DNA of 64,000 bases from Escherichia coli. Its GTDB lineage: Bacteria > Pseudomonadota > Gammaproteobacteria > Enterobacterales > Enterobacteriaceae. Every line of letters begins with the position of its first letter. Within the stretch, counting starts at the first letter, position 1. Below, piece after piece: positions 1,715 to 21,830 of the stretch. Location of the stretch: assembly GCF_044324875.1 (NCBI RefSeq), contig NZ_CP172187.1; one strand, given 5' to 3'. Made by a program: the position numbers and the translations under genes. A model generated the notes under the pieces. It saw only the letters and a list, made by a program, of their open reading frames with translations, had not been told where the DNA came from and made no database searches.

Positions 1715-1984
1715 TATTCTAATAACTGAATCCACACACAGTCAAATGTCATTATTGTGACTAAAAAACGCTCAATTCTCTGAGGGTGTGGCTGTATGCC
1801 TGCTGTGGACTGCTGTGTCCAGCTTATCCACAGCATTTTGCGCACGGTTCTGTGAATAAAATACCTGGTTACCCAGGCCGTGCCGGCACGTTAACCGGGC
1901 TGCATCCAATGCAAGTGTGTCGCTGTCGCCGGCATCCTCACCAGGTCACTCAGCAGTCAGGGAGAAAAATGGCGGATGAAGTAT

Positions 1985-2340
1985 GACGGAGACGGTCGGG
2001 CAAGTGCCCGTTTCTTTTCCGACAAAGGATGTCGCCGTGCTCCTCTTTTTACTGCGCCGGCTGACGCGGCGCGGCATAAACGCTGCCTGTGGTCAGTGTC
2101 CCGCGTCCGGCGGGCACGGGACGGGCGCTTTTACCGCTCCCGGCTGGCGTCGGTGACAGTGTACGCCAGCCCGTCGCCCTTTTCTGATGAACGCCCTTCA
2201 AGCCGCTTTCGCGGCATAGCCTTGCCGTCAAAAAGACGACGGCTGCGGTATTCCACGGTCGGCCTGACCCGTTACCGGACGCGGTGAACAGCCCACAGGC
2301 AGCGGGGAACGGGCACCACAGGGGGGCCCTCCCGGTGCTC
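1985..2340. repeat. Leading-region repeat family A, copy 1 (~350 bp, GC-rich, hairpin-rich); candidate Frpo/ssi-like single-strand promoter
   Basis: Near-identical to 3290-3650 (shown by near-identical translations of ORFs 1976..2287 and 3248..3592 and by direct reading); ends immediately upstream of the ATG at 2343. Confidence 0.8.
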
Positions 2341-2342
2341 CT

Positions 2343-3284
2343 GTGAGGAGAATTCCCATGCCAAACTGGTGCTCAAATCGTATGTATTTTTCTGGTGAAC
2401 CAGCACAGATCGCTGAGATTAAACGACTGGCCAGCGGTGCAGTCACACCGCTTTATCGCCGCGCCACAGATGAAGGTATTCAGCTGTTTCTGGCCGGTAG
2501 TGCCGGACTTCTGCAGACCACTGAAGATGTGCGGTTTGAACCATGCCCCGGACTGACGGCTGCCGGACGTGGTGTTGTATCGCCGGAGAATATCGCGTTC
2601 ACCCGCTGGCTGACACACCTGCAGAACGGTGTGCTACTGGATGAAAAAAACTGCCTGATGCTGCATGAACTCTGGCTGCAGAGTGGTACTGGCCAGCGTC
2701 GCTGGGAAGGATTACCGGATGAGGTCAGGGAAAGCATCACCGTGCATTTCACCGCCAAAAGAGGTAACTGGTGTGGCTTCTGGAGTAACGAGGATGTATC
2801 GGTGTGGTGGAACCGTCTGTGTGACAATGTACTGCCGGAAAAAACCATGCCGTTTGACCTGCTGACGGTTCTGCCCACCCGCCTGGATGTTGAAGTGAAT
2901 GGCTTTAACGGTGGTGTTCTGAACGGTGTTCCTTCTGCGTATCACTGGTATACGGAACAGTATGGCGTGAAGTGGCCTGTGGGGTATGAGGTGAATATCA
3001 GCAGTCAGGGAGACAACTTCATTCAGGTTGATTTCGACACGCCGTGGTGTCAGCCGGAAAGCGACGTTATTGCAGAATTAAGCCGCCGTTTCAGTTGCAC
3101 ACTGGAGCACTGGTATGCCGAGCAGGGCTGCAATTTCTGTGGCTGGCAGCGATATGAGCGTGGAGAGCTTGTTGATGTCCTGTGGGGGGAATTGGAATGG
3201 TCTTCCCCGACAGATGACGATGAGCTGCCGGAAGTCACCGGACCTGCGTGGATTGTCGACAAGGTGGCGCATTACGGTGGATGA
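2343..3284 (+). CDS. Hypothetical leading-region protein (313 aa; Cys/Trp-rich), function unknown
   Basis: Long ORF immediately downstream of repeat A copy 1; alternative start ATG at 2358 (MPNWCS...). No motif I can assign. Confidence 0.55.
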   Translation: MRRIPMPNWCSNRMYFSGEPAQIAEIKRLASGAVTPLYRRATDEGIQLFLAGSAGLLQTTEDVRFEPCPGLTAAGRGVVSPENIAFTRWLTHLQNGVLLDEKNCLMLHELWLQSGTGQRRWEGLPDEVRESITVHFTAKRGNWCGFWSNEDVSVWWNRLCDNVLPEKTMPFDLLTVLPTRLDVEVNGFNGGVLNGVPSAYHWYTEQYGVKWPVGYEVNISSQGDNFIQVDFDTPWCQPESDVIAELSRRFSCTLEHWYAEQGCNFCGWQRYERGELVDVLWGELEWSSPTDDDELPEVTGPAWIVDKVAHYGG

Positions 3285-3289
3285 ATTCT

Positions 3290-3650
3290 GACGGAGACGG
3301 GCGGGCAACCGCCCGTTTCTTTTCCGACAAAGGATGTCGCCGTGCTCCTCTTTTTACTGCGCCGGCTGACGCGGCGCGGCATAAACGCTGCCTGTGGTCA
3401 GTGTCCCGCGTCCGGCGGGCACGGGACGGGCGCTTTTACCGCTCCCGGCTGGCACCGGTGACAGTGTACGCCAGCCCGTCGCCCTTTTCTGATGAACGCC
3501 CTTCAAGCCGCTTTCGCGGCATAGCCTTGCCGTCAAAAAGACGACGGCTGCGGTATTCCACGGTCGGCCTGACCCGTTACCGGACGCGGTGAACAGCCCA
3601 CAGGCAGCGGGGAACGGGCACCACAGGGGTGCCCTCCCGGTGCCTTCTGT
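3290..3650. repeat. Leading-region repeat family A, copy 2
   Basis: Direct repeat of 1985-2340 with a few substitutions; ends at the RBS (AAGGAGG) of the methyltransferase gene at 3668. Confidence 0.8.
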
Positions 3651-3667
3651 AAGAGAAGGAGGCTTTT

Positions 3668-4351
3668 ATGTCCCGTTTTATCCTGGGTGACTGCGTGCGA
3701 GTTATGGCCACGTTTCCGGACAATGCTGTCGATTTCATCCTCACCGACCCGCCGTATCTCGTCGGTTTCCGTGACCGTTCCGGGCGCACCATTGCCGGTG
3801 ACGTTAACGATGACTGGTTGCAACCTGCCAGCAATGAGATGTACCGCGTACTCAAAAAAGACGCTCTGTTGGTCAGCTTCTACGGCTGGAACCGTATTGA
3901 CCGCTTTATGGCGGCCTGGAAACGCGCCGGATTCAGCGTGGCAGGGCACCTCGTGTTCACCAAAAACTACACATCCAAATCTGCGTATGTCGCGTACCGC
4001 CACGAATGCGCCTACATCCTGGCAAAAGGCCGTCCACGTCTGCCACAAAACCCGCTGCCGGACGTGCTGGGCTGGAAATATTCGGGCAATCGTCATCACC
4101 CGACGGAAAAGCCTGTTACCAGCCTGCAACCGCTGATTGAGAGCTTCACACACCCGAACGCAATTGTGCTGGACCCGTTTGCAGGCAGCGGCTCAACCTG
4201 CGTTGCCGCCCTCCAGTCCGGACGCCGGTATATCGGTATCGAGCTGCTTGAGCAGTATCACCGTGCCGGACAGCAACGACTGGCTGCCGTTCAACGGGCC
4301 ATGCAGCAGGGGGCCGCGAATGATGACTGGTTTATGCCGGAGGCTGCGTAA
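3668..4351 (+). CDS. Orphan DNA methyltransferase, beta-class (N6-adenine/N4-cytosine type; DPPY motif precedes the SAM-binding FAGSGST motif)
   Basis: 227-aa ORF with TDPPYLVGF near the N-terminus and DPFAGSGSTCVAA near the C-terminus; no adjacent restriction endonuclease gene. Confidence 0.85.
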   Translation: MSRFILGDCVRVMATFPDNAVDFILTDPPYLVGFRDRSGRTIAGDVNDDWLQPASNEMYRVLKKDALLVSFYGWNRIDRFMAAWKRAGFSVAGHLVFTKNYTSKSAYVAYRHECAYILAKGRPRLPQNPLPDVLGWKYSGNRHHPTEKPVTSLQPLIESFTHPNAIVLDPFAGSGSTCVAALQSGRRYIGIELLEQYHRAGQQRLAAVQRAMQQGAANDDWFMPEAA

Positions 4352-4573
4352 ATGAACTATGCCGGACACGAAAAACTTCGCGCCGAAGTGGCGGAGGTGG
4401 CCAACACCATGTGTGACCTTCGGGCCAGGCTGAACGATATGGAGCATCGCTGTCGTTTTGATTCCGATGTGCTTGTTGAACGCCTGACACGCCAGACGCT
4501 GTATCGCGCCAATCGCCTGTTTATGGAGGCGTATACCGAAATTCTTGAACTGGATGCGTGCTTCAAAGATTAA
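4352..4573 (+). CDS. Hypothetical small protein (73 aa)
   Basis: ATG abuts the methyltransferase stop; same strand as all leading-region genes. Confidence 0.5.
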   Translation: MNYAGHEKLRAEVAEVANTMCDLRARLNDMEHRCRFDSDVLVERLTRQTLYRANRLFMEAYTEILELDACFKD

Positions 4574-4585
4574 GGGGGAGACGAA

Positions 4586-5020
4586 ATGTACGGAACATGC
4601 GAAACACTCTGCCGGGAGCTGGCAGCGCAGTATCCGGGAGACACGCCGCTGATGCTGGTTGTCTGGTCCCCGGAAGAGATTCAGGCACTGGCTGACGGTA
4701 TGGAAATTTCTCTGACCGATCATGAAATCAGGACCGTCCTGTCGCGCCTGGAGGACATCCCGGAAGACCAGCGGAGTGAATCCGGTATTTCTTCTGCCGC
4801 TGCGATGGAGATTATCAGCAACGTGAGCGAAAACCGCCAGGTGACCGTCCCTGCTGAACTGCTGGCGTCCCTGATTCAGACCGCCGAACAGGCACTGTGG
4901 AAACGTGAATGGGCCGCCCGTGATAACGGCCTTGCCGTCCCGGAATGTGTTACCCGCCGTCAGGCAGTGATTAATCAGGCCCGCACCCTGCTGAAAAACA
5001 ACACACACGAAAACAACTGA
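4586..5020 (+). CDS. Hypothetical acidic protein (144 aa); paralog of ORF 6497..6919
   Basis: Shares the R(Q/H)VTVPA motif and a similar N-terminal pattern with ORF 6497..6919; RBS GGGGGAG upstream. Confidence 0.6.
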   Translation: MYGTCETLCRELAAQYPGDTPLMLVVWSPEEIQALADGMEISLTDHEIRTVLSRLEDIPEDQRSESGISSAAAMEIISNVSENRQVTVPAELLASLIQTAEQALWKREWAARDNGLAVPECVTRRQAVINQARTLLKNNTHENN

Positions 5021-5134
5021 TGTTATCGCCGCCTGCCCTCTGCCATTCAGAGACTGACCGGAACCGGGGCGGAACTGGTACTGTCCGGCAGTCAGTGGCA
5101 GTCGCTGCCGGTACTTCCGGCAGACGGAACGCAG

Positions 5135-5608
5135 GTGTCTTTCCCGTATGCCGGAGAATGGCTGACCGAAGACGAAATCAGGGCTGTTCTTGATGCGGTG
5201 CACGATGCGGTACGAAGCATCTGTTACCAGGTGGCAGAAGATACGCGGCGTATCCGTGCGGCGCTGACCACCACCGGTCAGACGTTGCTGACCCGCCAGA
5301 CGCGCCGCTTTCGCCTGGTCGTGAAGGAAAGCGATCATCCCTGCTGGCTCGATGAAGATGACGAAAACCTGCCCGTAGTGCTCGATGTCATCGTGAACCG
5401 GGGCGCACGTTTTTCGGCAGTGGAAATGTACCTGGTCAGCGATTGTATTGAGCATATCCTGTCCAGTGGGCTGGCCTGCGATGTGCTGCGTATACCGGAT
5501 GAACCGCCCCGCCGCTGGTTTGACCGTGGTGTTCTGCGGGAGGTGGTCCGGGAAGCCCGGACCGAAATCCGCAGCATGGCGGATGCCCTGGCAAAAATCC
5601 GTAAATGA
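5135..5608 (+). CDS. Hypothetical protein (157 aa)
   Basis: Co-oriented ORF; no recognisable motif. Confidence 0.5.
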
Positions 5609-5749
5609 TGACACTGGCGGGGTAAATCCCCGCCTTTTTCCTGCCGGTCCCCGGACAGAGCACAAAGGAAGTCGCCGCCGGCTCCGCTTTACCCGGCCAT
5701 GCGGGGCATGGCCTTGTGGATTTTCAGTTATGTGGCCTCAGCGTCGTGT

Positions 5750-5990
5750 GCGGGCTGTGCCGTGCCTCCATCGTAGCCGGGCTTCTGCGGGCGGGTTGCA
5801 AGGTAAGGTGAACCGCTGCGGTCACCCGGTCCCTCCTTCCCGTCTGCCGTGATTTTCCGGTCGTTCACCCGCTCAGATTTCGCGGTCTCACCCTCCAACT
5901 CCCGCCAGCCGTGTGCGTCAGGCTGCGGCTTCCCTTGCGCCCTTGCAACCCTGCAGGCCCGGCAAAGATGGAGGCACGGCACCGCCCGGT
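5750..5990. other. Long-range inverted repeat in a GC-rich 415-bp intergenic region upstream of klcA; candidate single-strand hairpin promoter/ssi element
   Basis: GCCGTGCCTCCATC (about 5763) pairs with GATGGAGGCACGGC (about 5968) about 190 nt apart, with further local palindromes; no ORF of note. Confidence 0.4.
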
Positions 5991-6024
5991 GTCGCGGAAT
6001 ATGTGAACAACGGAGGAAAACATC

Positions 6025-6450
6025 ATGCAATATGCGAAACCTGTCACTCTGAATGTTGAAGAGTGCGACCGTCTGTTTTTTCTGCCTTACCTGTTTGGCC
6101 AGGATTTTCTGTATGCCGAGGCATCTGTGTACGCGCTGGCGAAAAAAATGATGCCGGAATATGACGGCGGATTCTGGCACTTCATCCGCCTGCCGGACGG
6201 TGGCGGTTACATGATGCCGGATGGCGACCGTTTTCATCTGGTCAACGGTGAAAACTGGTTTGACCGTACGGTCAGCGCCGATGCCGCAGGCATCATTGTG
6301 ACTTCCCTTGTGATTAACCGTCAGTTGTGGCTGTACCACGACAGCGGTGATGCAGGACTGACTCACCTGTACAGGATGCGCGATGCGCAGTTGTGGAGCC
6401 ACATCGAATTTCACCCCGAATGCAATGCGATTTACGCGGCACTGGACTGA
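6025..6450 (+). CDS. klcA: KlcA/ArdB-family anti-restriction protein
   Basis: 141 aa with family hallmarks FLPYLFG...[16 protein letters not shown]...[11 protein letters not shown], matching my recollection of KlcA/YfjX-type proteins. Confidence 0.8.
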
Positions 6451-6496
6451 TTAACGGACGGGGCGGCAATGCCGCCCCTGTAAAGGAGACGAGAAC

Positions 6497-6919
6497 ATGT
6501 ACTGTACTGTTAAAGAAATTATCCGCGAAGTGCTGGATACAGACGTGCCGGACAGTGAATGCGTTTTTGCCGTGGTGCTGACCCGTGGGGATGTGCGCCA
6601 CATAGCTCAGGACTGGAGTCTGGCAGACGATGAGCTGGAAACCGTCATGCAGCGGCTGGACGATGCCTTTGAGCATGGTGCGGATGTCAGCGTTGTTCAC
6701 GACGTTGTTCGTGAACTGATGGAAGAAAAGCGCGCCAGCCGTCATGTGACAGTCCCGGCGATGATGCTGGAAAAAGTGATGGCGCTGGCAGGCAGTGAAA
6801 TGAAGCGCCTGTATGCCGTCGGAAGTGAGAACGGGGGCGACGGTGACGCATTCGTCAGGGAGGAACGCGAAGCAATGGACGTTGTGTTACAGGCGCTGGA
6901 CGGGGAGACGATGTCATGA
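6497..6919 (+). CDS. Hypothetical acidic protein (140 aa); paralog of ORF 4586..5020
   Basis: Shares the RHVTVPA motif and N-terminal pattern with ORF 4586..5020; RBS AAGGAG upstream. Confidence 0.6.
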   Translation: MYCTVKEIIREVLDTDVPDSECVFAVVLTRGDVRHIAQDWSLADDELETVMQRLDDAFEHGADVSVVHDVVRELMEEKRASRHVTVPAMMLEKVMALAGSEMKRLYAVGSENGGDGDAFVREEREAMDVVLQALDGETMS

Positions 6920-7107
6920 ATATCAGCACAGAAACCCGCGAAATTCTGCGTAATTACAGGGCCGTGATTAATGCGCGGCGTCGTGAAATGGGGCAGAAAC
7001 CGCTCACCACCGCGCAGATTGTTGATGAAATCTGCGATTTTGTGGCGAATCAGCAGGCGGTTTTCCTGGGCGGTCACTACATCTTACAGGGCAGCAGAAA
7101 CAGGTGA
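6916..7107 (+). CDS. Hypothetical small protein (63 aa)
   Basis: ATG overlaps the preceding stop (ATGA), suggesting translational coupling. Confidence 0.4.
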   Translation: MNISTETREILRNYRAVINARRREMGQKPLTTAQIVDEICDFVANQQAVFLGGHYILQGSRNR

Positions 7108-7295
7108 TACAGGGGCAGGCGGTGGAGGCCGCCTGTCAGCCCGCGCGAAAACCCCTGGCAGGCTGACGCCTGCCGGAAGGGAAGCGGGCCACGCTGGCGC
7201 GTCGCCCGTTACCCTTCCCGTCTGTGATGTGTCTGACTCAGGAGTGTTTCTTTCTTATGTTGCGGAACTGTTCCTGATGTTGTTGTTGTTCCTTT

Positions 7296-7895
7296 ATCTG
7301 CTGCTCTGATTCTGACTACTGCAGTGTTGTTCTGTCTGCCGGGCGCACCTTCGGCTCCCGGCTGCCTGGCGGCATCCGGTCGTCAGGCCCGACTCCGACA
7401 GGCAGCTGCTGGCGCACCTGCCAGTCTCCGCCGAACCCGCTGGCGCGGCTTCGGGCTGCCGCTACGGTCCGATGCGTGAAAACCCCGGGCTTGCAGCGAC
7501 CGTTCTGGTCGCGCCGCCTCTGTCGCGCCGTGGCCTGCGCTCCAGGCATCCCGGCAAAAAGACGCCGGGATGTAAGGCGCAACGCCGTTTCGCAAACCGC
7601 GCTTCACGTCGTTGCTGCGGGTCCCTGCTCATTGCCTGCCGGGTGCCACACACCCGTATGAGTCCCTGTCGCCGGGGGCATAGACAGCCACAACCTGCCG
7701 CACTGACTGTCCAGGGTAAATGAACAGCCCACAAAATTTTTTACCCAAAACCCGGTAAAAAATTTTGCGTTCTGCCCAGGACAGGTGCGTCAGGCCGTGG
7801 CAGTGATGCCCCTTGCGGCGAAGGTTCTCAAACGGGTGAAGTTCATACCACAGGGAATACAGCAGCAGGTTCCCGCGAAACGTCAAAACCGCGGC
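7296..7895. repeat. Leading-region repeat family B, copy 1 (~600 bp, GC-rich); candidate Frpo/ssi-like single-strand promoter
   Basis: Shares ...CTGATTCTGACTACTGCAGTGTTGTTCTGTCTGCCGGGCGCACCTTCGGCTCCCGGCTGCC... through ...CGCGGCTCCCGAAACTCAAC with copies at 10651-11280 and 18720-19340. Confidence 0.8.
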
Positions 7896-8148
7896 TCCCG
7901 AAACTCAACGGGTGATGTTCTTTAAAAATCAGGATTTATTTCAGGCTCCGGCAATACGCATTTATGTGTTCTGTCAGTCATCCGGCTGGCAGGTAATGAG
8001 AACGCAGGAACAGAAGGAGGAAAACACCGGAGAACGTCAGACGCAGATATGAAAAAAGCAGGCCGGGGAGGACCTGCTTAATCCACACCGCAAAAACTGT
8101 TCGAGCAGTTTCTGCGGTTCCATTCAACAGTCATAAGGAGTTTCATTT

Positions 8149-8379
8149 ATGACGGTAAGTATTGTTTCACCTTCCGCAGCGGCTGTAAAGCCCCGCCGTC
8201 ATCCCCGTTTCAGACGCGAAGACATCCCCGCGCCGGAAATTGACCCCGTGCTGAAAGCCTTCGGGCGACACATAGCCCGGAGTTTTCACCGGGGGCGTGG
8301 TGTACACATCCCCGCCATGAAAAACACGGCCTTCGGGCAGGTGCTCCGCACACTCGAACTGAAACGCGCTTTTAACTGA
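8149..8379 (+). CDS. Hypothetical small basic protein (76 aa)
   Basis: ORF downstream of repeat B copy 1 with RBS AGGAG. Confidence 0.4.
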   Translation: MTVSIVSPSAAAVKPRRHPRFRREDIPAPEIDPVLKAFGRHIARSFHRGRGVHIPAMKNTAFGQVLRTLELKRAFN

Positions 8380-8430
8380 TGAGGTGAGCCGCCCCGCGAG
8401 GGGCGGCAACAGATGGAAGGAGAACATTTT

Positions 8431-9792
8431 ATGACATTAGCAGCAATCACCATGACCGCCCCGGAAGCCGCCAACCCTGTGCAGATGTACCGCGCGACCT
8501 ACTCACCGGATGACAACAAACTGCGCCTGTATGCCGCGTCACGTCTTGACCCGGAGACGTATAAAAAAGTGCATGATGCCGGTTTTCGCTGGGCACCCAA
8601 ACAGGCGCTGTTTGTCGCGCCAGCCTGGACACCGGGCCGGGAAGACGTGCTCCTCTCACTTGCCGGAGAGATTGAGGATGAAGACAGCACGCTCGCTGAA
8701 CGTCAGGAAGCACGGGCGGAGCGGTTTACCGGATACAGCGGAAAGCGGGCCAGTGAATCCGCACAGGCACTTGATGAAGTGGAAAGACTGGCCGCGATGA
8801 TCCCGCCCGGTCAGCCCATTCTTGTGGGGCATCACAGCGAACGCCGCGCCCGTCGTGATGCGCAGCGTATTGAAAACGGCATGAAACGTGCCGTGATGCT
8901 CTTTGAGCGTGCGGAATACTGGGAGGAGCGGGCGCGGTCGGCACTGCTTCACGCGAAGTATAAAGAACGCCCGGACGTTCGCTGGCGTCGTATCAAAAAA
9001 ATCGAAGCGGATTTGCGCAAGGCTGAAAAGACCATCGCGCAGTCGCAGAAATATCTGACGATGTGGCGGGCTGAATCGCTGGATCTGAATATGGCAAAAC
9101 TCATCAGCAGTCATGACCATATCAGCGCCTGTTTCCCGCTGGACAGGTATCCGCGCCCGGCAGAAAAAAGCCAGTATGAAGGAAGTCGATCGTTATGGTC
9201 GGCCCTGGATGATGACATCATCACCACGGAGCAGGCCCGCGAAATTGCGATCCGCTGTCATGAACGGCAGATTCAGCATCAACAACGCTGGGTTAACCAC
9301 TATCATAACCGCCTGATCTATGAGCGTGCCATGCTGGACGAAAGCGGCGGCGTGGTTACCCGGACACAGGATTTTGAGCCGGGCGGACAGGTTTTCAGCC
9401 GGGGCGAGTGGCTGACCATCATCCGCGTGAACAAAAGCAACGGGGCGGTGAGTTCAGTCACAACGCCGAATTACAGTTTTCTCGGGTACAGCGGCACGAT
9501 GAAAGTGACACCCGATCGCATCACGGACTACAAAGCACCATCGGCAGAAGAGGCTGCCGTCGCCAGTCAGGCCGCGAAGCGTCCGCCGGTAGTCAACTAT
9601 CCGGGGGAAGGTTTCCGGGAAATGACAAAGGCGCAGTGGGCCGCCCTGCCCCGGGACTGTAAGGCCGTGCGCAGTGTGGCAGAGACAGAAGACCACGGGG
9701 CATACCGCTACCGCCGCACAATGGACAATAATTTCCGCCTGGTGAATGTGTATATCACTGACATGAAAATCACGGAAATCCCACAGAAATAA
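8431..9792 (+). CDS. Conserved hypothetical leading-region protein (~453 aa)
   Basis: ORF-track frame 8413..9792; ATG at 8431 follows AAGGAGAA. Charged and coiled-coil-like; no catalytic motif recognised. Confidence 0.55.
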   Translation: MTLAAITMTAPEAANPVQMYRATYSPDDNKLRLYAASRLDPETYKKVHDAGFRWAPKQALFVAPAWTPGREDVLLSLAGEIEDEDSTLAERQEARAERFTGYSGKRASESAQALDEVERLAAMIPPGQPILVGHHSERRARRDAQRIENGMKRAVMLFERAEYWEERARSALLHAKYKERPDVRWRRIKKIEADLRKAEKTIAQSQKYLTMWRAESLDLNMAKLISSHDHISACFPLDRYPRPAEKSQYEGSRSLWSALDDDIITTEQAREIAIRCHERQIQHQQRWVNHYHNRLIYERAMLDESGGVVTRTQDFEPGGQVFSRGEWLTIIRVNKSNGAVSSVTTPNYSFLGYSGTMKVTPDRITDYKAPSAEEAAVASQAAKRPPVVNYPGEGFREMTKAQWAALPRDCKAVRSVAETEDHGAYRYRRTMDNNFRLVNVYITDMKITEIPQK

Positions 9793-9838
9793 GGTATATC
9801 CCCCCGGGAAATCCCCGGGGGATGACGGAGATAATGAC

Positions 9839-10402
9839 ATGCACAGTCAGTTAAGAGAACGTATCCGGCTGATGCGCGCAAGGCTGGATAACGCCGCGCC
9901 GGTTGCTGAAATCCGGGCTGAATCTCAGCTTTTTGTGACTCCTGCCCCGGTCTGTGATCGCCTGGTGACGCTGGCGGAAATCAGCAACCGTGATCACATT
10001 CTGGAACCCTCTGCCGGCACCGGGGCCATACTGCTGGCGATTCGGGATACCGCGCCGGAGGCCATGTGTGATGCGGTGGAGATTAACAGCGGGCTGGTCC
10101 GGTATCTGCGGGAAAATTTTAACGGTGTCAGGGTACAGTGTGGCGACTTCATGGAATGGCAGCCGGTGCAGTATTACAGCCGGATCATTATGAATCCGCC
10201 GTTCAGTCACGGGCAGGATATCCGGCATATCCTGCGGGCTTTTTCCCTGTTGCGTCCGGGGGGCGTTCTGGTTGCCGTCTGTCTCAACGGGCCGCGCCAG
10301 CAGGAGAAGCTGTTACCGTTTTCTGACGTCCGCGAGGAGCTGCCGCGCGGCACGTTTGCTTATACCGATGTCCCGACGATGATTATTCGTTTGCGTGCCT
10401 GA
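9839..10402 (+). CDS. Small SAM-dependent methyltransferase (187 aa); probable second orphan N6-adenine DNA methyltransferase
   Basis: SAM-binding-like LEPSAGTGAILLA followed by IMNPPF (NPPF-type motif IV); too short for a separate target-recognition domain, so substrate is uncertain. Confidence 0.65.
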   Translation: MHSQLRERIRLMRARLDNAAPVAEIRAESQLFVTPAPVCDRLVTLAEISNRDHILEPSAGTGAILLAIRDTAPEAMCDAVEINSGLVRYLRENFNGVRVQCGDFMEWQPVQYYSRIIMNPPFSHGQDIRHILRAFSLLRPGGVLVAVCLNGPRQQEKLLPFSDVREELPRGTFAYTDVPTMIIRLRA

Positions 10403-10581
10403 TGACACAGGGCTGGCGGGAGGATAAATGCCCGTCTGTCCGCGCCGGGAAAAGACCGCGCGCCGGTGGCGCTGAAAGGGGCCGCGCTCACGCGCCGCCC
10501 CTTTCATTACGCGGACGTTCTGATGGGGGCTTCTGTCTTTTCAGACCTGTCATTTGTCTGTTACTGATGATGTTGTTGTTC

Positions 10582-10647
10582 CTGCTACTGCTACTGCTAC
10601 TGCTACTGCTACTGCTACTGCTACTGCTACTGCTACTGCTACTGCTC
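10582..10647. repeat. Hexanucleotide tandem repeat (CTGCTA)x11
   Basis: Eleven perfect units counted directly at the 5' edge of repeat B copy 2; the equivalent position in copies 1 and 3 is not expanded. Confidence 0.9.
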
Positions 10648-10650
10648 TTC

Positions 10651-11280
10651 TTTTTCCTGCTGCTCTGATTCTGACTACTGCAGTGTTGTTCTGTCTGCCG
10701 GGCGCACCTTCGGCTCCCGGCTGCCTGGCGGCATCCGGTCGTCAGGCCCGACTCCGACAGGCAGCTGCTGGCGCACCTGCCAGTCTCCGCCGAACCCGCT
10801 GGCGCGGTTTCGGGCTGCCGCTACGGTCCGATGCGTGAAAACCCGGCTTGCAGCGACCGTTCCGGTCGCGCCGCCCCTGTCGCGCCGTGACCTGCGCTCC
10901 AGGCATCCCGGCAAAAAGACGCCGGGATGTAAGGCGCAACGCCGTTTCGCAAACCGCGCTTCACGTCGTTGCGGCGGGTCCCTGCCCGTTGTTGTGTCCG
11001 GTGCCATTCACCTGTTTAAGCCCCTGTCGCCGGGGGCTGATACAGCCACAACCTGCCGCACTGACTGTCCAGGGTAAATGAACAGCCCACAAAATTTTTT
11101 ACCCAAAACCCGGTAAAAAATTTTGCGTTCTGCCCAGGACAGGTGCGTCAGGCCGTGGCAGTGATGCCCCATGCGGCGAAGGTTCTCAAACAGGTGATGG
11201 TGAATACCGGAGGGAACAAAGAGCAGGTCCCCGCAAAACGTCAAAACCGCGGCTCCCGAAACTCAACAGATGATGGGGGC
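10651..11280. repeat. Leading-region repeat family B, copy 2, directly upstream of ssb
   Basis: Direct sequence identity with copies 1 and 3; the 3' end ...CGAAACTCAACAGATGATGGGGGCTGAAAAC is shared exactly with copy 3. Confidence 0.8.
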
Positions 11281-11308
11281 TGAAAACATCAACAGAAGGA
11301 GACACATC

Positions 11309-11347
11309 ATGGCAGTTCGTGGCATTAACAAGGTCATTCTTGTCGGT
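11309..11347 (+). CDS. ssb: Plasmid single-stranded DNA-binding protein, exon 1 (codons 1-13, MAVRGINKVILVG)
   Basis: ATG with RBS AAGGAG; the 13 codons are the canonical SSB N-terminus; the reading frame is interrupted by GTGCG at 11348. Confidence 0.8.
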
Positions 11348-11960
11348 GTGCGCCGTTGAAGCGCGGTGTTTTATGGAGTGTTGCCTGAAAAGCAACATGG
11401 CTTAGTGGTATAGCCATTGCATACTGTGGTTAGCCTTGCTTGGTAACAGGCTCGGAGATCCTGAAAAGGAGAGGTGAACATAGCATCCACAGAAAAGGGT
11501 GGTGAATATGGAAATCGTTATAAGTATCACCATTCAATGCAAGATGTATATGGATAAACTGGGTTTGTTGAAGTCGAGATCTATGTGGGAAACAGGAAAC
11601 CAATAACGCAGAACGATTGAAGCGTTATTCCCGTACTAGCACAAGAAATCCGTCCGACGTTGATTGTGACCACTCTAACGGGCCAGCTATTGATGAAATA
11701 GTTAAACGATCGAAAGACATCCTAAGTACATCGCATCTCCACACCGTGAAACTACGGGACTACCTAAACTGGATTTATACCCAGCATGGTAGCGGAGTCT
11801 CCATAGTACTCAAGGTCGGCCTGTAATGGGTTCCGGCAGTCCGCATTATACGGAAGCAGCAAAGGTATAAATCAACCGGAAGGAAGATGAAAGCCTCACA
11901 GTGCTGCGGGGAAGGGAGACAGTTGTTAGATACATCAATCTCTAAGAGGAGGGTTAGCCA

Positions 11961-13862
11961 ATGCTGCCTGATGAACTTGAGAAAAGATTAGATGGAATTG
12001 AGGATGCTTCAAAAAAAGGGTATCCAGTACGTAATCTATACAAAATTGCGTGTGAGCCCGGACTGTGGCTGCAAGCCTACGTGAATATACGGGCCAATGC
12101 AGGTGCACTGACTCAAGGTGTATCAACAGATACCATTGATGGCTTTTCTATCGAAAGAGCAGAGAAGCTGGCAAAAACATTGCGGAGTAGAGAATACGTA
12201 GCGAAACCTGTACGCAGAGTTCAGATCCCAAAAAAGGACGGAAAAACCAGACCGCTGGGGATTCCAGGTGGAGACGATAAACTGGCGCAAGAAGTAGCAA
12301 GAATTATTCTGGAAAGGGTTTATGAACCAGTATTCTCTGAACACTCTCATGGATTCAGACCAAAACGTTCGTGTGAAACTGCGCTCAGATCTATTCGTCC
12401 AGTCTGGAACGGAGTTAAATGGATCGTGGATGTTGATATCAAAGGTTTCTTTGACAATATCCCCCACAAACTATTGCTGAATACACTGGCAGAGAAAATT
12501 AAGGATAAGAATTTCCTGAAATTAATCGAACAGTGGCTGAAGGCAGGATATGTGGACAATTGGAAATACCATCGCTCATATTCTGGCACGCCACAAGGTG
12601 GGATAATTTCTCCCTTACTGGCAAATATATACCTCGACAAACTGGACCGTTTTGTAGAACAGAATTTAATTCCTGCATATACAAGCGGTACAAAACGAAG
12701 AGCGAATCCAGATATGAACAGGCTGGCCCATAAGATTCATAAACTACGAAAGAAAGTAGACGGTATGGCAACTGATTCTGAATCAGAAAAAGAAGCCATA
12801 AAGAAAGAAATTGAACGACTGCTTGAAGAAAAACGTTCTATACCATCTCAGGTCATGAACGATCCAAACTTCAGGCGTATGTACTATGTTCGATATGCTG
12901 ATGACTTCGTAATCGGTGTCATCGGCTCGAAGAAAGATGCTGAACATATATCAAGACAGGTCAGAAACTTTATTACTACTTCACTGGGATTGGAAGTTAA
13001 TGAAGCAAAGACCAGGATCCGCCATATCTCAGAAGGAGTTAATTTTTTAGGCTATGAAATCAGACAGGCAGATGCAAAGAAATTGCTGAAGCAGAAAATG
13101 CAAGGGCGGCACGCTCTCCGGAGATCCACCACAGGAATTGTGCAGCTCTTCGTTCCTGACAATATAGCCGCTAAATTTTGTCACCAAAAGAAATATGGCT
13201 GTTATGAGAATGTGAAGGCTGTACATCGTTCAAGTCTACAAAATCTCAGTGAAGCTGAAATTGTTCTGACTTTCAACGCGGAAATGCGCGGATTGGCGAA
13301 CTACTACAGTCTGGCGCTGGACATGAAATATAAATTATCAAAATTATATTTCATATGGCAAATAAGCCTTTTTAAGACCCTGGCGAATAAACGACGTAGT
13401 TCAGTGAATAAAGTCGCCAAATCGCTACGGCAAAATAATGGAGATCTGGCTATTACCGTTCAGGCCAAAAATGGATCCCGAAAGATTGAGGTTTTCAAAC
13501 TCAAACATGTCAATCGCAACCGAACAACGATTGTCGATACGGAACCGAGAACCGCACATATCACAACCCGCACAACAGAGATCATGCGTCGATTAGGGGC
13601 AAGGATCTGCGAGTATTGTGCGAAGACTGGGCGCTGCGAAGTACATCATGTCAGAAAGCTAAAAGACCTGAAGAAAGGTCGTAAGGCCGGATATAAACCC
13701 AGCTTGTGGCAACTAATGATGATCGCACGCCGCCGGAAAACGATGATTTTGTGCGCAAGTTGCCACGACAAGTTACATAGCGGAAAACTACCCGATTTGA
13801 GACAGGAAAAGGGAAGAATACTCCTGCAACCACCTGTCTCAAGCGGGGATTCTGCTAAATGA
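11961..13862 (+). CDS. Group II intron-encoded protein: reverse transcriptase, maturase (X) and HNH endonuclease domains
   Basis: 633 aa with RT motifs (LGIPGGDDKLAQE, SHGFRPKRSCETAL, FFDNIPH, GTPQGGIISPLLANIYL, YVRYADDFVIGV) and a C-terminal Cys/His HNH-like cluster (CEYCAKTGRCEVHHV...CASCHDKLH). Confidence 0.9.
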   Translation: MLPDELEKRLDGIEDASKKGYPVRNLYKIACEPGLWLQAYVNIRANAGALTQGVSTDTIDGFSIERAEKLAKTLRSREYVAKPVRRVQIPKKDGKTRPLGIPGGDDKLAQEVARIILERVYEPVFSEHSHGFRPKRSCETALRSIRPVWNGVKWIVDVDIKGFFDNIPHKLLLNTLAEKIKDKNFLKLIEQWLKAGYVDNWKYHRSYSGTPQGGIISPLLANIYLDKLDRFVEQNLIPAYTSGTKRRANPDMNRLAHKIHKLRKKVDGMATDSESEKEAIKKEIERLLEEKRSIPSQVMNDPNFRRMYYVRYADDFVIGVIGSKKDAEHISRQVRNFITTSLGLEVNEAKTRIRHISEGVNFLGYEIRQADAKKLLKQKMQGRHALRRSTTGIVQLFVPDNIAAKFCHQKKYGCYENVKAVHRSSLQNLSEAEIVLTFNAEMRGLANYYSLALDMKYKLSKLYFIWQISLFKTLANKRRSSVNKVAKSLRQNNGDLAITVQAKNGSRKIEVFKLKHVNRNRTTIVDTEPRTAHITTRTTEIMRRLGARICEYCAKTGRCEVHHVRKLKDLKKGRKAGYKPSLWQLMMIARRRKTMILCASCHDKLHSGKLPDLRQEKGRILLQPPVSSGDSAK

Positions 13863-13888
13863 GTTTATCCCCAATAAGCTAGCAATGG

Positions 13889-13926
13889 AGAGCCGTATGC
13901 ACTGAAAGGTGCACGTACGGTTCGGA
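13889..13926 (+). ncRNA. Group II intron domain V (catalytic hairpin)
   Basis: Matches the conserved domain V consensus as I recall it (GAGCCGUAUGC...GCACGUACGGUUC), about 80 nt from the 3' splice site. Confidence 0.7.
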
Positions 13927-14008
13927 GGGGGGGTAACGGTGATCTAACTCAAGATAAGCAGGACATATTCGCCATTTATCTTGAAAGACCACACGTACCC
14001 TACCCTAC

Positions 14009-14497
14009 CGTCTGGGAAAAGATCCGGAAGTCCGTTACATCCCAAACGGGGGCGCAGTGGCAAACCTGCAGGTGGCCACGTCAGAAAGCTGGCGCGACAA
14101 ACAGACGGGGGAGATACGGGAGCAGACAGAATGGCATCGCGTGGTGCTGTTCGGCAAGCTCGCGGAAGTGGCTGGTGAGTATCTGCGCAAGGGCGCGCAG
14201 GTCTACATCGAAGGTCAGCTTCGCACCCGTAGCTGGGAGGATAACGGTATCACCCGTTACGTCACCGAAATTCTTGTTAAGACCACGGGCACCATGCAGA
14301 TGCTGGGACGTGCCGCAGGTACTCAGACTCAGCCGGAAGAGGCGCAACAGTTCAGCGGTCAGCCTCAGCCGGAATCACAGCCGGAACCGAAAAAAGGAGG
14401 CGCGAAAACGAAAGGCCGTGGACGTAAGGCCGCGCAGCCGGAGCCTCAGCAGCCGTCTGAACCCGCGTATGACTTCGATGACGACATTCCGTTCTAA
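14009..14497 (+). CDS. ssb: Plasmid single-stranded DNA-binding protein, exon 2
   Basis: In frame with ORF 14057..14497 ([19 protein letters not shown]...DDDIPF, acidic SSB tail); upstream in-frame codons [17 protein letters not shown] continue the SSB OB-fold. Confidence 0.8.
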
Positions 14498-14849: not shown

Positions 14850-16807
14850 ATGTCAGTTACAGAGTCTAAGACAAAAACGGAGCGTAAATCCAGCCGTAAA
14901 CCTGCAAAAACGCAGGAAACTGCACTGTCTGCCCTGCTGGCGCAGACGGAGGAAGTGAGCGTGCCGCTGGATTCACTGATTAAATCACCGCTGAATGTGC
15001 GCACGGTGCCGTATTCTGCGGAGTCCGTCAGTGAACTGGCTGATTCCATTAAGGGAGTCGGCCTGCTGCAGAATCTGGTTGTTCATGCCCTGCCAGGTGA
15101 CCGTTACGGTGTCGCCGCAGGTGGTCGCCGACTGGCAGCACTCAACATGCTGGCAGAGCGTGACATCATTCAGGCTGACTGGCCTGTCCGCGTGAAAATT
15201 ATTCCGCAGGAGCTGGCGACGGCTGCATCGATGACCGAGAACGGTCATCGTCGGGATATGCACCCTGCCGAACAGATTGCCGGATTCCGCGCAATGGCGC
15301 AGGAAGGCAAAACACCTGCGCAAATCGGTGATTTGCTGGGCTATTCACCCCGCCATGTCCAGCGAATGCTGAAACTGGCTGACCTTGCGCCTGTCATCCT
15401 CGATGCGCTGGCAGAAGACCGCATCACCACCGAACACTGTCAGGCGCTGGCGCTGGAGAACGACACCGCGCGTCAGGTGCAGGTGTTTGAAGCCGCTGCC
15501 AGTCAGGATGGGGTGGAAAACCGGATGTGCGGGTTATCCGCAACCTGATTACGGAAAGTGAAGTGGCGGTGAAGGACAACACTAAATTTCGCTTTGTGGG
15601 GGCTGATGCTTTCTCGCCTGACGAACTGCGCACCGATTTGTTCAGCGATGACGGGGACGGTTATGTCGACCGCGTGGCGCTCGATGCCGCCCTGCTGGAA
15701 AAACTCCAGGTTGTTGCAGAGTCCCTTCGGGAAGCAGAAGGCTGGGAATGGTGCGCCGGGCGCATGGAGCCAGTCGGTGAGTGCCGTGAGGATGCCGGAA
15801 CATACCGCTGTCTGCCGGAGCCGGAAGCGGTGCTGACGGAGGCGGAAGAAGAACGCCTGAACGAACTGATGACGCGTTACGACGCGCTGGAAAACCAGTG
15901 TGAGGAATCCGACCTGCTGGAAGCAGAAATGAAGCTGATGCGCTGCATGGCGAAGGTCAGAGCGTGGACGCCGGAGATACGTGCCGGAAGCGGTGTGGTG
16001 GTGTCCTGGCGTTATGGCAACGTATGTGTCCAGCGTGGTGTGCAGTTGCGCAGTGAAGATGACGCGACTGACGACGCTGACCGCACGGAACAGGTGCAGG
16101 AGAAAGCGTCAGTGGAGGAAATCAGTCTGCCACTGCTGACGAAAATGTCTTCCGAACGCACGCTGGCAGTCCAGGCGGCACTGATGCAGCAACCGGACAA
16201 ATCCCTGACACTGCTGGCATGGACGCTCTGCCTGAATGTGTTTGGCAGCGGAGCGTACAGTAAACCAGCACAAATCAGCCTGGAATGTAAACATTATTCG
16301 CTGACCAGCGATGCGCCGTCAGGGAAGGAAGGTGCCGCATTCATGGCGCTGATGGCAGAAAAAGCCCGTCTTGCGGCCCTGTTACCGGAGGGATGGTCAC
16401 GGGACATGACGACATTCCTTTCACTCAGTCAGGAGGTGCTGTTATCCCTGCTCAGTTTCTGCACCGCGTGCAGCATCCACGGCGTTCAGACCCGCGAGTG
16501 TGGTCACACGTCACGCAGCCCGCTGGACACGCTGGAGAGCGCCATCGGTTTTCACATGCGCGACTGGTGGCAGCCGACAAAAGCAAACTTCTTCGGACAC
16601 CTGAAAAAGCCGCAGATTATCGCAGCCCTGAATGAGGCAGGACTGTCCGGTGCCGCACGGGACGCGGAGAAGATGAAGAAAGGCGATGCGGCTGAACATG
16701 CAGAGTTCCATATGAAAGACAACCGCTGGGTGCCTGGCTGGATGTGTGCACCACGTCCACAGACGGATACCACTGAACGCACTGATAACCTGGCTGATGC
16801 CGCCTGA
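14850..16807 (+). CDS. ParB-like nuclease-domain protein, apparently split by a frameshift into 14850..15548 and 15527..16807
   Basis: N-terminal part has ParB/Srx-like motifs (LQNLVVHALPGDRYGVAAGGRRLAALN, HTH-like region); the second ORF continues in another frame with a 22-nt overlap. Combined length (~650 aa) is that of intact homologues as I recall them. Confidence 0.6.
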
Positions 16808-21469: not shown

Positions 21470-21830
21470 TGGTGGTTCTCACCACCAAAAGCACCACACA
21501 CTACGCAAAAACAAGTTTTTGCTGATTTGCCACTTGAATCATTAACTTATGTTTTAAATAATGTATTTTAATTTATTTTACATTATAAAAAGGATTCATT
21601 GGTGAATCGCATATGATTCACCAATGAATTTAACACAACTCATAGATGAATCAGTAATAATAAAACAACGAGTTAAAGCGAATTGACTCTAGATTCAATT
21701 CGTGATGTGATTTGCTGCATGAATCGTAATTTTCGTAACTTGCGTCACGATTCGATTCATCGATGAATTGTCATTTTTTTATATGTGAAATAAATTTGAT
21801 GCGATAAGAAAATAAAGAGGTATACATATG
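21470..21830. other. oriT region; predicted nic site on the minus strand at about 21495/21496
   Basis: Minus strand reads ...TTTTTGCGTAGTGTGT|GGTGCTTTTGGTGGTGAG, the F-like nic consensus as I recall it; AT-rich with multiple inverted repeats (e.g. 21590-21630, 21690-21770) in the expected TraM/IHF/TraY binding zone upstream of traM. Confidence 0.7.

Follow-up and report, generated by a model that had tools for sequence, protein, structure and literature searches.

What do the small, co-oriented genes around klcA do that lie between two orphan methyltransferase genes on this Escherichia coli plasmid? A preliminary description had listed seven open reading frames (ORFs) here as having no assignable function and had proposed them as candidates for new anti-defence genes. 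All seven are present on the plus strand where they had been placed, as are both flanking methyltransferases (the second a class I SAM enzyme with an NPPF motif) and KlcA, a member of the Antirestrict/KlcA family in Pfam. The observation is correct, but it is not new: these conserved genes are already catalogued as uncharacterised candidate anti-defence genes in the excerpt of Supplementary Table 1 of Samuel et al. (2024; PMC11541004) used here. None of the ORFs matches a known anti-defence, defence or enzyme family in Pfam, NCBIfam, PHROGs or PADLOC, and no housekeeping family was found in these databases or in a PDB sequence search. The absence of an assignable function holds insofar as the searches returned none, but families were found for some of the ORFs (DUF1380 twice, DUF3560 and YubE), while the remaining ORFs gave no family match.

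Identity of the Region and Direction of Transfer

By sequence comparison, positions 1,900–11,300 of the window (the whole stretch of 64,000 nucleotides that was analysed) are the leading region of an IncF plasmid, the early-entry region of F-type conjugative plasmids. At least 5,000 PLSDB plasmids match this interval at more than 90% identity, at least 3,450 with a query coverage of at least 80% among the matches listed, and the region is 93% identical to and collinear with F. A nic-like site, situated between the SLT gene and traM, differs at two positions from what we take to be the F nic sequence (Table 1). Its location on the minus strand shows that this is the transferred strand (T-strand) and that the block enters the recipient early; every listed ORF, itself on the plus strand, is read from the transferred strand as template. 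Downstream of the block, ssb, psiB, hok/sok and traM/J fit the leading-region setting proposed earlier. The identity of the block as the half of the IncF leading region that lies away from oriT, and its organisation in three transcription units, are on their own close to certain.

Table 1. Features of the leading region and the nic-like site, with window coordinates.
Feature	Position	Strand	Evidence or remark
~330-nt hairpin element, copy 1, ssp3/class 3 type	1971–2304	-	upstream of DUF1281 gene
DUF1281/YubB-family gene	2358–3284	+	Pfam DUF1281 2.5e-47, DUF1281_C 1.5e-15
ssp3-class hairpin, copy 2, 5' of methylase operon	3276–3609	-	inverted repeat I4, arms 3386–3415 and 3580–3609
Orphan N6-adenine DNA methylase, operon A gene 1	3668–4351	+	NCBIfam PRK13699 2.1e-147
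orf73, YubE family (PF27407)	4352–4573	+	phrog_4830 1e-36
DUF1380 paralog a (YcgB/YfcB/YubF), 144 aa	4586–5020	+	Pfam PF07128; phrog_9024 2e-71
5'-truncated remnant of 258-aa YchA/YubG-family gene	5021–5608	+	listed ORF from GTG at 5135
Terminator-like stem-loop closing operon A	5616–5634	+	seven G-C pairs, then TTTTTCC
Class 2 single-strand promoter hairpin (F ssp2), 5' of klcA	5751–5988	-	inverted repeat I1, 32-nt arms, 91% complementary
klcA/ardB anti-restriction gene (F yfgB), operon B gene 1	6025–6450	+	Pfam Antirestrict 1.7e-26; phrog_10132
DUF1380 paralog b (YcgC/YcjA/YfeC/YubJ), 140 aa	6497–6919	+	Pfam PF07128
orf63, small basic protein, pI 9.8	6916–7107	+	
Frpo-type (class 1, ssp1) single-strand promoter element, copy 1, 5' of operon C	7284–7917	-	direct repeats D3–D6
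AS-pc01 antisense RNA	8053–8154	-	Rfam RF02875, 89.7 bits vs gathering score 79
orf76, very basic small protein (pI 11.9), operon C gene 1	8149–8379	+	
DUF3560 protein (YdbA), 453 aa	8431–9792	+	Pfam PF12083 1.1e-36
Small class I SAM methyltransferase, NPPF motif, operon C last gene	9839–10402	+	NCBIfam, PHROGs, PADLOC
Frpo-type element, copy 2, 5' of ssb	10643–11275	-	repeat and F comparison
nic-like site of oriT	21488–21504	-	GTAGTGTGTGGTGCTTT, 2 mismatches; 0 expected by chance

Three Operons Behind Hairpin Elements

The single-strand promoters postulated earlier correspond to long T-strand hairpins 5' of each operon. For operon A, the minus strand of 3340–3667 folds as DNA with -93.8 kcal/mol (z = -5.7), and the hairpin, called ssp3 by Fraikin (2026) and a class 3 promoter by Wen et al. 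(2025; PMC12672017), is homologous to the F element. The copy further upstream contains inverted repeat I2 with 30-nt arms, is 97% identical to 3276–3575 (direct repeat D1) and matches the F region 5' of the methylase at 94%. The DUF1281 gene that follows it, whose match to phrog_37043 begins at residue 6, is likewise uncharacterised and co-oriented with the block and lies outside the coordinates of the preliminary description. In F, the methylase operon is described as an M.EcoGIX-homolog operon, M.EcoGIX being a single-strand methylase (Wen et al., 2025; PMC12672017). The methylase is 83–87% identical in diverged plasmids, and the ATG of orf73, whose homologs carry the label PF27407:YubE in precomputed Pfam hits, directly abuts its TAA stop, which suggests translational coupling.

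One of the seven ORFs (5135–5608) is a truncated remnant rather than a gene. Relative to F and pYSP8-1, a 236-bp deletion, seen as a gap in the alignment to pYSP8-1 with its junction near 5043, stripped the 258-aa gene of its ribosome-binding site and start codon together with about 72 codons, and phrog_8919 is matched at profile positions 103–258 only. The remaining frame continues that of DUF1380a behind the TGA stop of the latter. The junction is rare, being common to 7 PLSDB records against at least 5,000 with the region.

The klcA hairpin of operon B (z = -4.3 for the minus strand of 5700–6024) is 93% identical to that of F, where ssp2 acts as promoter and replication roadblock and controls yfgB, an ArdB homolog (Fraikin, 2026; bioRxiv 10.64898/2026.01.09.698686). 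The start of orf63 overlaps the DUF1380b stop (ATGA), which again suggests translational coupling, and a 58-aa homolog with 47% identity occupies the same overlapping position in the diverged plasmid L006. At least 5,000 plasmids carry orf63 at an identity of 95% or more, and it has no Pfam match.

The element 5' of operon C folds with -183.5 kcal/mol (z = -10.4); its identity is 93% to the F element 5' of ssb, 84% to one 5' of ygeA, and 93–97% to the second copy in the window across the direct repeats. The first gene of the operon, orf76, occurs in 5,000 plasmids or more, and the order orf76-DUF3560-methyltransferase is kept in Klebsiella IncFII(K) plasmids. For DUF3560 the start at 8431 was chosen over an upstream ATG at 8413 because a GGAG precedes it by 8 nt and RefSeq uses it. 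The alignment contains an invariant GQP-LVGHHSE-(R/K)-AR motif, and the AlphaFold2 model is confident for residues 20–85 and 180–300 only.

The DUF1380 Proteins and Their Partners

As the preliminary description had recognised, ORFs 4586 and 6497 are paralogs (BLASTP 27% identity, E = 3e-9), both belong to DUF1380, and the R-x-V-x-VPA motif is kept across the family. Their description as flanking klcA is loose wording, because DUF1380b directly follows klcA but the remnant and a hairpin separate DUF1380a from it. Both are acidic (DUF1380a, pI 4.6 and net charge -10; DUF1380b, pI 4.41 and net charge -17), as is the family (median pI 4.6). The AlphaFold2 model of DUF1380a (mean pLDDT 84) has seven helices, and DUF1380 is predicted to be an acidic, all-helical protein with a two-part fold, a description new to this work. 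Beyond the family itself, structure searches matched nothing but generic helical hairpins or coiled coils; a methyltransferase identity was rejected since the predicted fold is all-helical and has no structural relatives.

Each DUF1380 type keeps its own partner in every diverged lineage examined, one after methylase-YubE and the other after KlcA, which is likewise new here. The order methylase-YubE-DUF1380 was found in all ten lineages compared (the window, pYSP8-1, F, pMT1, L006, L008, L010, L012, L014 and L016) and KlcA-DUF1380 in seven of seven (the window, pYSP8-1, F, L006, L009, L010 and L012). The linkage persists while DUF1380 identity drops to 34–39%, the methylase still being at 83–84%; small helical proteins are expected to diverge faster than an enzyme even without an arms race. 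In Klebsiella IncFII(K), a KlcA locus without DUF1380 is followed instead by a pol III theta homolog.

Possible Roles of the Unnamed Genes

The leading region of F comprises four operons, all of them equipped with a single-strand promoter, and its KlcA and M.EcoGIX-homolog operons are induced early in transconjugants (Wen et al., 2025; PMC12672017). Deletion of ssp2 lowers F transfer into restriction-proficient recipients, and its deletion or replacement has no effect in isogenic K-12 matings (bioRxiv 10.64898/2026.01.09.698686); deletion of Frpo2 from IncF plasmids left transfer rates unchanged, as cited in a passage of PMC10104558. The explanation that we favour, and hold as a whole to be probable by a small measure, is that the three units would be read off the incoming single strand in the recipient within the first minutes after transfer and that the unnamed genes may be accessory factors of restriction-evasion cassettes. 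It is established that the hairpins restore double-stranded -35 and -10 boxes on the T-strand, so that transcription lasts only until the complementary strand is made, and that the known operon members shield the entering DNA from restriction. Operon A would deliver the ssDNA adenine methylase with YubE, DUF1380a and the 258-aa protein (truncated here), operon B KlcA/ArdB with DUF1380b and orf63, and operon C orf76 and DUF3560 with a small N6A-type methyltransferase. The target of both DUF1380 proteins is most likely another protein, be it their own partner or a defence or nuclease component of the host; YubE, given its coupling, most likely serves the methylase as a subunit or modulator; and the small methyltransferase most likely has DUF3560 as its partner, because at 187 aa the enzyme appears too small for a target-recognition domain of its own.

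The accessory role in anti-restriction is our best-supported guess. Operon linkage alone shows neither physical nor functional interaction, no known anti-defence, defence or enzyme family is matched, and some KlcA loci do without DUF1380. KlcA alone is reportedly sufficient for anti-restriction in vivo (work said to be that of Serfiotis-Mitsa et al. in 2010). F lacks operon C altogether. This plasmid has no intact 258-aa gene, and such genes are therefore dispensable.

Less likely, though the most serious alternative, is that the unnamed genes act in establishment or regulation and not in anti-defence. The basic orf63 and orf76 proteins would then be nucleic-acid binders that adjust strand conversion, host transcription or the expression of the leading region, with the acidic DUF1380 proteins modulating them or their operon partners. 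There is a non-defence precedent in HerB/YfjB, a ParB-like leading-region protein that reprograms host transcription (PMC13370423), ssp2 itself has a role in DNA processing, and the lack of similarity to known anti-defence proteins is also in keeping with such a role. The basicity of the two proteins and a weak Pfam HU-CCDC81 match in orf76 (residues 25–62) point the same way, but this match is marginal (E = 7e-4, 38 residues), neither a helix-turn-helix nor another DNA-binding domain was detected in orf63, and the genes with which the tight pairing has been kept so deeply are specifically those of restriction evasion, namely the methylase and KlcA.

AS-pc01 is a known RNA, and its position over the start of ORF 8149 is a new observation: it covers the 5' UTR of orf76 with its Shine-Dalgarno sequence as well as the initial 6 nt of the ORF, and has a sigma-70-like promoter (8189–8161) and a terminator (8079–8056), both on the minus strand. 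A Klebsiella plasmid has retained it in the corresponding place (L004, 6910–7006, 94.8 bits). Because only double-stranded DNA can serve as its template, it would shut operon C down after establishment of the plasmid. Together with orf76 it could also be read as a module for addiction or stabilisation resembling a type I toxin-antitoxin system: an antisense RNA of about 100 nt with its own promoter and terminator overlies a small ORF at its ribosome-binding site and start, the arrangement is retained in a diverged plasmid, and hok/sok copies occur further along the leading region in the same window. We consider this reading improbable, as orf76 is strongly basic and without a hydrophobic or transmembrane stretch, unlike Hok-type toxins, heads a three-gene operon, and lies behind a Frpo-type promoter that fits early expression, not post-segregational killing.

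The six other listed ORFs are intact genes, with ATG starts preceded by GGAG-type Shine-Dalgarno sequences and purifying selection against diverged homologs (dN/dS 0.07–0.29: DUF3560 0.08, DUF1380b 0.22, DUF1380a 0.29, orf73 0.09 and orf76 0.13 at dS of ~0.8–0.9, and orf63 0.07 from very few changes at dS 0.10). That some, especially the three short ones, are chance frames or decaying relics is scarcely credible: the leading region does carry lesions (the cut 258-aa gene that left the listed remnant, a frameshifted herB homolog, an intron in ssb), but the short ORFs have dN/dS of 0.07–0.13, homologs of 47–55% identity at the same positions in diverged plasmids, and exact copies on at least 1,000 contigs each.

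Comparison With Known Systems

In the excerpt of Supplementary Table 1 of Samuel et al. (2024; PMC11541004) used here, leading-region-enriched uncharacterised families correspond to our ORFs in name and in position relative to oriT: YfcA/YubE, DUF1380 YcgB/YubF, YchA/YubG, DUF1380 YcgC/YubJ, "Plasmid protein", DUF1281 and DUF3560 YdbA. DUF1380 (families 7 and 14) and DUF3560 (28) are named outright, DUF1281 is family 27, families 11, 10 and 6 were matched here to YubE, the 258-aa gene and orf63, and orf76 was not found in that excerpt. The anti-defence-candidate hypothesis is shared, but the propagated names "adenine-specific methyltransferase" (DUF1380) and "hydrolase/HD" (DUF3560) are not supported here, and no cassette-level linkage was seen in the excerpt.

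The F leading region (NC_002483, 54.1–57.9 kb; ~93% nucleotide identity) shares the order methylase, 73-aa gene, DUF1380, 258-aa gene, klcA, DUF1380 and 63-aa gene and the hairpins 5' of the methylase, klcA and ssb; in the F literature the KlcA/ArdB homolog is called yfgB and the promoters ssp3, ssp2 and ssp1b/Frpo2, with yfdA and yffB on the side of ssp2 opposite yfgB. Unlike the window, F lacks the operon of orf76, DUF3560 and the small methyltransferase with its extra Frpo copy as well as the hairpin upstream of the DUF1281 gene, and has an intact 258-aa gene and no ssb intron. IncI1 plasmids (pESBL, ColIb-P9 and R64) similarly place class 1–3 hairpin promoters before M.EcoGIX, klcA/ardA or ssb-psiB operons, with recipient induction of up to ~500-fold, the homology being as stated in PMC12672017 rather than from direct sequence comparison.

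hok/sok-type loci resemble orf76 and AS-pc01 in the cis-antisense RNA over the translation start of a small ORF, and differ from them in that orf76 is basic, heads an operon and stands behind a single-strand promoter. With ArdA, the Ocr DNA mimics and KlcA/ArdB, the DUF1380 proteins have in common that they are small, acidic (pI 4.4–4.6), expressed early and encoded beside restriction-evasion genes, but they share neither sequence nor fold similarity with these proteins, their own fold being predicted as two-part and all-helical.

Setting of the Leading Region

In E. coli and Klebsiella, resistance genes travel chiefly on IncF plasmids. Whether these plasmids transfer successfully into a defended recipient is determined by the leading region, about half of whose genes are still without a function. 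The preliminary description placed the block at 4352-9792 in such a region, and this assignment holds. Between the SLT gene and traM, the minus strand carries a nic-like sequence, GTAGTGTGTGGTGCTTT, which resembles the nic sequence of F and has traM, traJ, and FinP beyond it; this identifies the minus strand as the one transferred (T-strand). The block, with all its genes on the plus strand, trails the nick by 11.7-17.1 kb, so that it enters early and the incoming strand is the template for its genes. The IncF leading-region markers ssb, psiB, hok/sok, a ParB-like gene, DUF932, and SLT occur in the order known from F; they were taken from the annotation of the near-identical plasmid pTB-nb3, with sok identified by Rfam and with ssb and the herB homolog located in the window itself.

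At least 5,000 PLSDB plasmids match a 5.5-kb query of the block at >90% identity, and 3,450 of these span at least 80% of the query. The matches listed are mostly conjugative IncF plasmids of Escherichia, Klebsiella, Salmonella, and Shigella, the best among them being E. coli pTB-nb3 (99.3%), while the F plasmid is collinear with the block at ~93% identity. At the distal edge of the region lie umuD-like and dinI/impC-like genes, a layout that recurs in other F-like plasmids and in families 34 and 38 of Samuel et al. (2024; PMC11541004).

Features of the leading region in the window, with dN/dS estimates and the corresponding leading-region-enriched families of Samuel et al. (2024), matched by name and position relative to oriT in the accessible part of their Supplementary Table 1
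Feature	Position	Remarks	dN/dS	Family
umuD-like and dinI/impC-like genes	993-1735	minus strand		
330-nt element, two copies	1971-2304, 3276-3609	upstream of DUF1281 / methylase		
DUF1281				27, DUF1281
Methylase	3668-4351	operon A		8, adenine methylase
orf73 (YubE)	4352-4573	operon A	0.09	11, YfcA
DUF1380a	4586-5020	operon A	0.29	7, DUF1380, YcgB/YubF
Deletion region	5018-5135			
258-aa gene, remnant	5021-5608	operon A; listed as ORF 5135-5608		10, YchA/YubG
Terminator-like stem	5616-5634	3' of 258-aa-gene remnant		
Inverted repeat	5751-5988	upstream of klcA		
klcA	6025-6450	operon B		9, KlcA
DUF1380b	6497-6919	operon B	0.22	14, PF07128, YcgC/YubJ
orf63	6916-7107	operon B	0.07 (few changes behind estimate)	6, 'Plasmid protein'
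Stretch related to (CTGCTA)n	7268-7315	upstream of first Frpo copy		
630-nt element, two copies	7284-7917, 10643-11275	upstream of orf76 / ssb		
AS-pc01	8053-8154	minus strand		
orf76	8149-8379	operon C	0.13	
DUF3560 gene	8431-9792	operon C	0.08	28, DUF3560, YdbA
Small methyltransferase	9839-10402	operon C		26, adenine methyltransferase
Poly-Leu ORF	10402-10668	spurious		
(CTGCTA)n tandem repeat	10558-10680	just upstream of second Frpo copy		
ssb exon 1	11309-11347			
Group II intron	11348-14008	2,661 nt, 5' GUGCG; reverse-transcriptase ORF 11961-13862; Rfam Intron_gpII 13888-14008		
ssb exon 2	14009-14497			
herB/yfjB homolog	14850-16807	ORFs 14850-15548 and 15527-16807		
nic-like sequence	21488-21504	minus strand		

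Single-Strand Promoters

Each gene group is preceded by a long T-strand hairpin. These elements share 93-94% identity with their counterparts in F, and their minus-strand DNA folds with z = -5.7 (ssp3-type), -4.3 (klcA hairpin), and -10.4 (Frpo-type) against shuffled controls. The putative single-strand promoters of the preliminary description are homologs of experimentally defined F elements, known in the literature as class 3 (ssp3), class 2 (ssp2), and class 1 (Frpo/ssp1) promoters, for which initiation from the single-stranded form only has been reported in pESBL and F (Wen, 2025, PMC12672017; Fraikin, 2026, bioRxiv 10.64898/2026.01.09.698686). F has four such leading operons, and those with KlcA and the M.EcoGIX homolog are induced in fresh transconjugants (PMC12672017). 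The ssp2 element drives yfgB, a KlcA/ArdB homolog, and stalls complementary-strand synthesis, and its deletion leads to less transfer into restriction-proficient recipients (bioRxiv 10.64898/2026.01.09.698686). The three operons of the block would accordingly be transcribed from hairpin promoters of the entering strand, and their known members shield DNA from restriction.

The two copies of the ssp3-class repeat are 97% identical, lie 1,305 nt apart, and flank the DUF1281 gene, whereas F has a single one, in front of the methylase. With the additional copy, DUF1281 would be under a single-strand promoter of its own, and loss of the gene could also be mediated by the repeat. Both Frpo copies have a hexanucleotide (CTGCTA)n tandem repeat or a short stretch related to it upstream, and the repeat creates the spurious poly-Leu ORF. 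A group II intron in sense orientation interrupts the leading-region ssb, so early SSB made from the single-strand promoter would depend on splicing; with the intron excised in silico, the two exons encode a complete SSB of 175 aa. Compared with F, the ParB-like herB/yfjB homolog lacks 1 nt near 15497 and reads as two ORFs, which marks it as a pseudogene or else reflects an error of sequencing; in pTB-nb3, the closest relative among the matches listed, it is intact.

Protein Families and Linkage of the Two DUF1380 Types

The two methyltransferases and KlcA that the preliminary description places around the ORFs are borne out, the first methyltransferase as a DNA methylase of PRK13699, the second as a small class I SAM enzyme with an NPPF motif, and KlcA as a KlcA/Antirestrict protein, and the proposed paralogy of ORFs 4586 and 6497 is confirmed by BLASTP (E = 3e-9, 27% identity) and by the Pfam family DUF1380 (PF07128, best E 2.5e-52) in both. 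ORF 8431 matches DUF3560 (PF12083, E = 1.1e-36) and, at residues 90-215 as numbered from the ATG at 8413, phrog_6744, and homologs of orf73 carry the label PF27407 'YubE' among precomputed Pfam hits. Scans of every ORF against NCBIfam, PHROGs, PADLOC, and Pfam give, apart from DUF and 'unknown function' families, only a chance match to FabG and a marginal HU-like match; the last is the only Pfam result for orf76, Pfam has nothing for orf63 or the 258-aa protein, and NCBIfam and PADLOC are empty for the unnamed ORFs. None of these matches a known anti-defence family (ArdA, ArdB/KlcA, ArdC, PsiB, or anti-CRISPRs) in Pfam, NCBIfam, or PHROGs, sequence searches of the PDB with DUF1380a, DUF3560, and the 258-aa protein find no match, and models and sequences of the unnamed ORFs find no anti-defence match in the PDB by sequence or fold. 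In Samuel et al. (2024; PMC11541004), DUF1380 family 7, family 6, and family 11 are likewise without anti-CRISPR or anti-restriction matches. The earlier reading of the ORFs as candidate anti-defence genes stands in that they are uncharacterized neighbors of restriction-evasion genes; they show no likeness to a known anti-defence family.

DUF1380 is a small family (282 clusters at 50% identity in a profile search of 1.84 billion representatives) of uniformly acidic proteins (median pI 4.6). AlphaFold2 predicts seven helices and zero strands (mean pLDDT 84) rather than a Rossmann-type alpha/beta fold, and DUF1380 is therefore, judging by the model, not the DNA methyltransferase that a propagated UniProt-derived name makes of it; there is no methyltransferase match in Pfam or NCBIfam, and AFDB50 matches at E <= 0.001 are DUF1380-family or unnamed proteins with no other functional annotation. 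The DUF3560 protein has an invariant GQP-LVGHHSE motif in the alignment. The name 'HD hydrolase' that some records give it is matched by no Pfam HD hit, the invariant motif reading GHHSE, and its model, with pLDDT <50 at residues 126-137, is too poor to assign a fold. Searches of phage genomes by tblastn find no DUF1380 and only four weak domain matches to DUF3560, giving no link to phage polyvalent proteins, and these DUFs are not mentioned by Iyer et al. (2017).

The one lead that merits experiment is that each of the two DUF1380 types is linked to a cassette of its own. Seven diverged DUF1380 representatives, one per 50%-identity cluster, were examined together with the window, pYSP8-1, F, and pMT1, and two contexts cover every one of them: N6_N4 methylase-YubE-DUF1380 (10/10 lineages) or KlcA-DUF1380 (7/7 lineages). 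The two cassettes directly abut in two lineages, and one lineage has a 58-aa orf63 homolog that, as in the window, overlaps the stop of DUF1380b. The linkage persists where identity has fallen to 34-39% for DUF1380, 53-55% for YubE, and 42% for the 258-aa protein, with the methylase at 83-84%.

Proposed Roles of the Unnamed Proteins

The unnamed proteins may be accessories of restriction-evasion cassettes. In this view, DUF1380a and DUF1380b, being acidic, would bind proteins and either assist the methylase and KlcA or act on the targets of these two; YubE would be a coupled partner of the methylase and DUF3560 a partner of the small methyltransferase, while the antisense RNA AS-pc01 would provide shut-off after establishment. 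If DUF1380, YubE, the 258-aa protein, and DUF3560 are such accessories, they would generally help to determine the host range of plasmids and might be targeted to block plasmid spread. We tentatively suggest, while considering it rather unlikely, that DUF1380 is a new plasmid-restricted anti-restriction accessory family whose types work with an ssDNA methylase (and YubE) and with KlcA/ArdB and, secondarily, that AS-pc01 is a dsDNA-only switch confining the orf76-DUF3560-methyltransferase operon to the zygotic window. If true, the DUF1380 role could explain the in vivo action of KlcA. A stronger claim is not warranted because the proteins resemble no known anti-defence protein, KlcA reportedly acts by itself in vivo, DUF1380 is missing from some KlcA loci, F is without operon C, and the window's plasmid has lost the 258-aa gene. 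The main rival is that the unnamed proteins are regulatory or establishment factors, for which HerB would be a precedent by analogy.

orf76 and the Antisense RNA AS-pc01

An Rfam match to AS-pc01 spans the Shine-Dalgarno sequence and ATG of orf76 and is bracketed by its own predicted sigma-70-like promoter and terminator. A Klebsiella IncFII(K) plasmid with an orf76 of 82% identity has kept it in the corresponding position, whereas F lacks both AS-pc01 and the orf76 operon. AS-pc01 is templated by the complementary strand, which is absent before conversion, and it would therefore act only on the double-stranded plasmid. A cis-antisense RNA over a translation start is also what a type I toxin-antitoxin system would show, but this reading fails on the properties of the protein: orf76 has no hydrophobic stretch and a pI of 11.9, unlike a small hydrophobic membrane-active toxin, and a Hok-like toxin is rejected.

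Conservation and Decay of the Reading Frames

An ORF listing recovers all the reading frames of the preliminary description on the plus strand, and six of the seven are genes with ATG starts and upstream GGAG-type ribosome-binding sites. The exact protein sequence of each of these is found in tens to >1,000 contigs in public data, and dN/dS was estimated against diverged homologs from Yersinia pestis pMT1, a Klebsiella IncFII(K) plasmid, and F; this selection and conservation rule against the ORFs being non-genes. For the DUF3560 gene, 8431 is the better-supported start.

The seventh, 5135-5608, is not an intact gene but a 5'-truncated remnant of the 258-aa gene. Its PHROG 8919 match starts only at profile position 103, and a 236-bp deletion relative to pYSP8-1 and F, with a junction common to only 7 PLSDB records, has removed the ribosome-binding site, the start, and ~72 codons. 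The deletion left the remnant in frame with DUF1380a, the TGA stop alone standing between them; read-through would give a fusion protein, and the match of frame is probably a coincidence. In the leading region of a diverged plasmid (GCA_040225255.1), a 262-aa paralog at 2919-3707 (26% identity) lies immediately 3' of a first YchA/YubG-family gene, and this family therefore also duplicates within leading regions.

Comparison with Catalogued Leading Regions

The genes of the block have counterparts among the largest leading-region-enriched families in the accessible part of Supplementary Table 1 of Samuel et al. (2024; PMC11541004), among which orf76 was not found. The table tags these families 'uncharacterized', and the paper proposes such genes as anti-defence candidates. 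The suggestion that the ORFs are candidates for new functions is thus a reasonable reading but coincides with a published working hypothesis. Literature searched by gene name yielded no functional study of any block gene, and yfhA and yfjB of the literature were rejected as block genes, being the ParB-like HerB gene outside the block. The initial observation is correct and its interpretation reasonable, but the literature already contains both. Few plasmid regions have been sequenced as often as this one, which is catalogued and actively studied; the locus, a near-identical copy, adds no new gene or architecture to it. The leads that the analysis provides are the strictness with which each DUF1380 type keeps to its cassette and the antisense RNA that lies over orf76.
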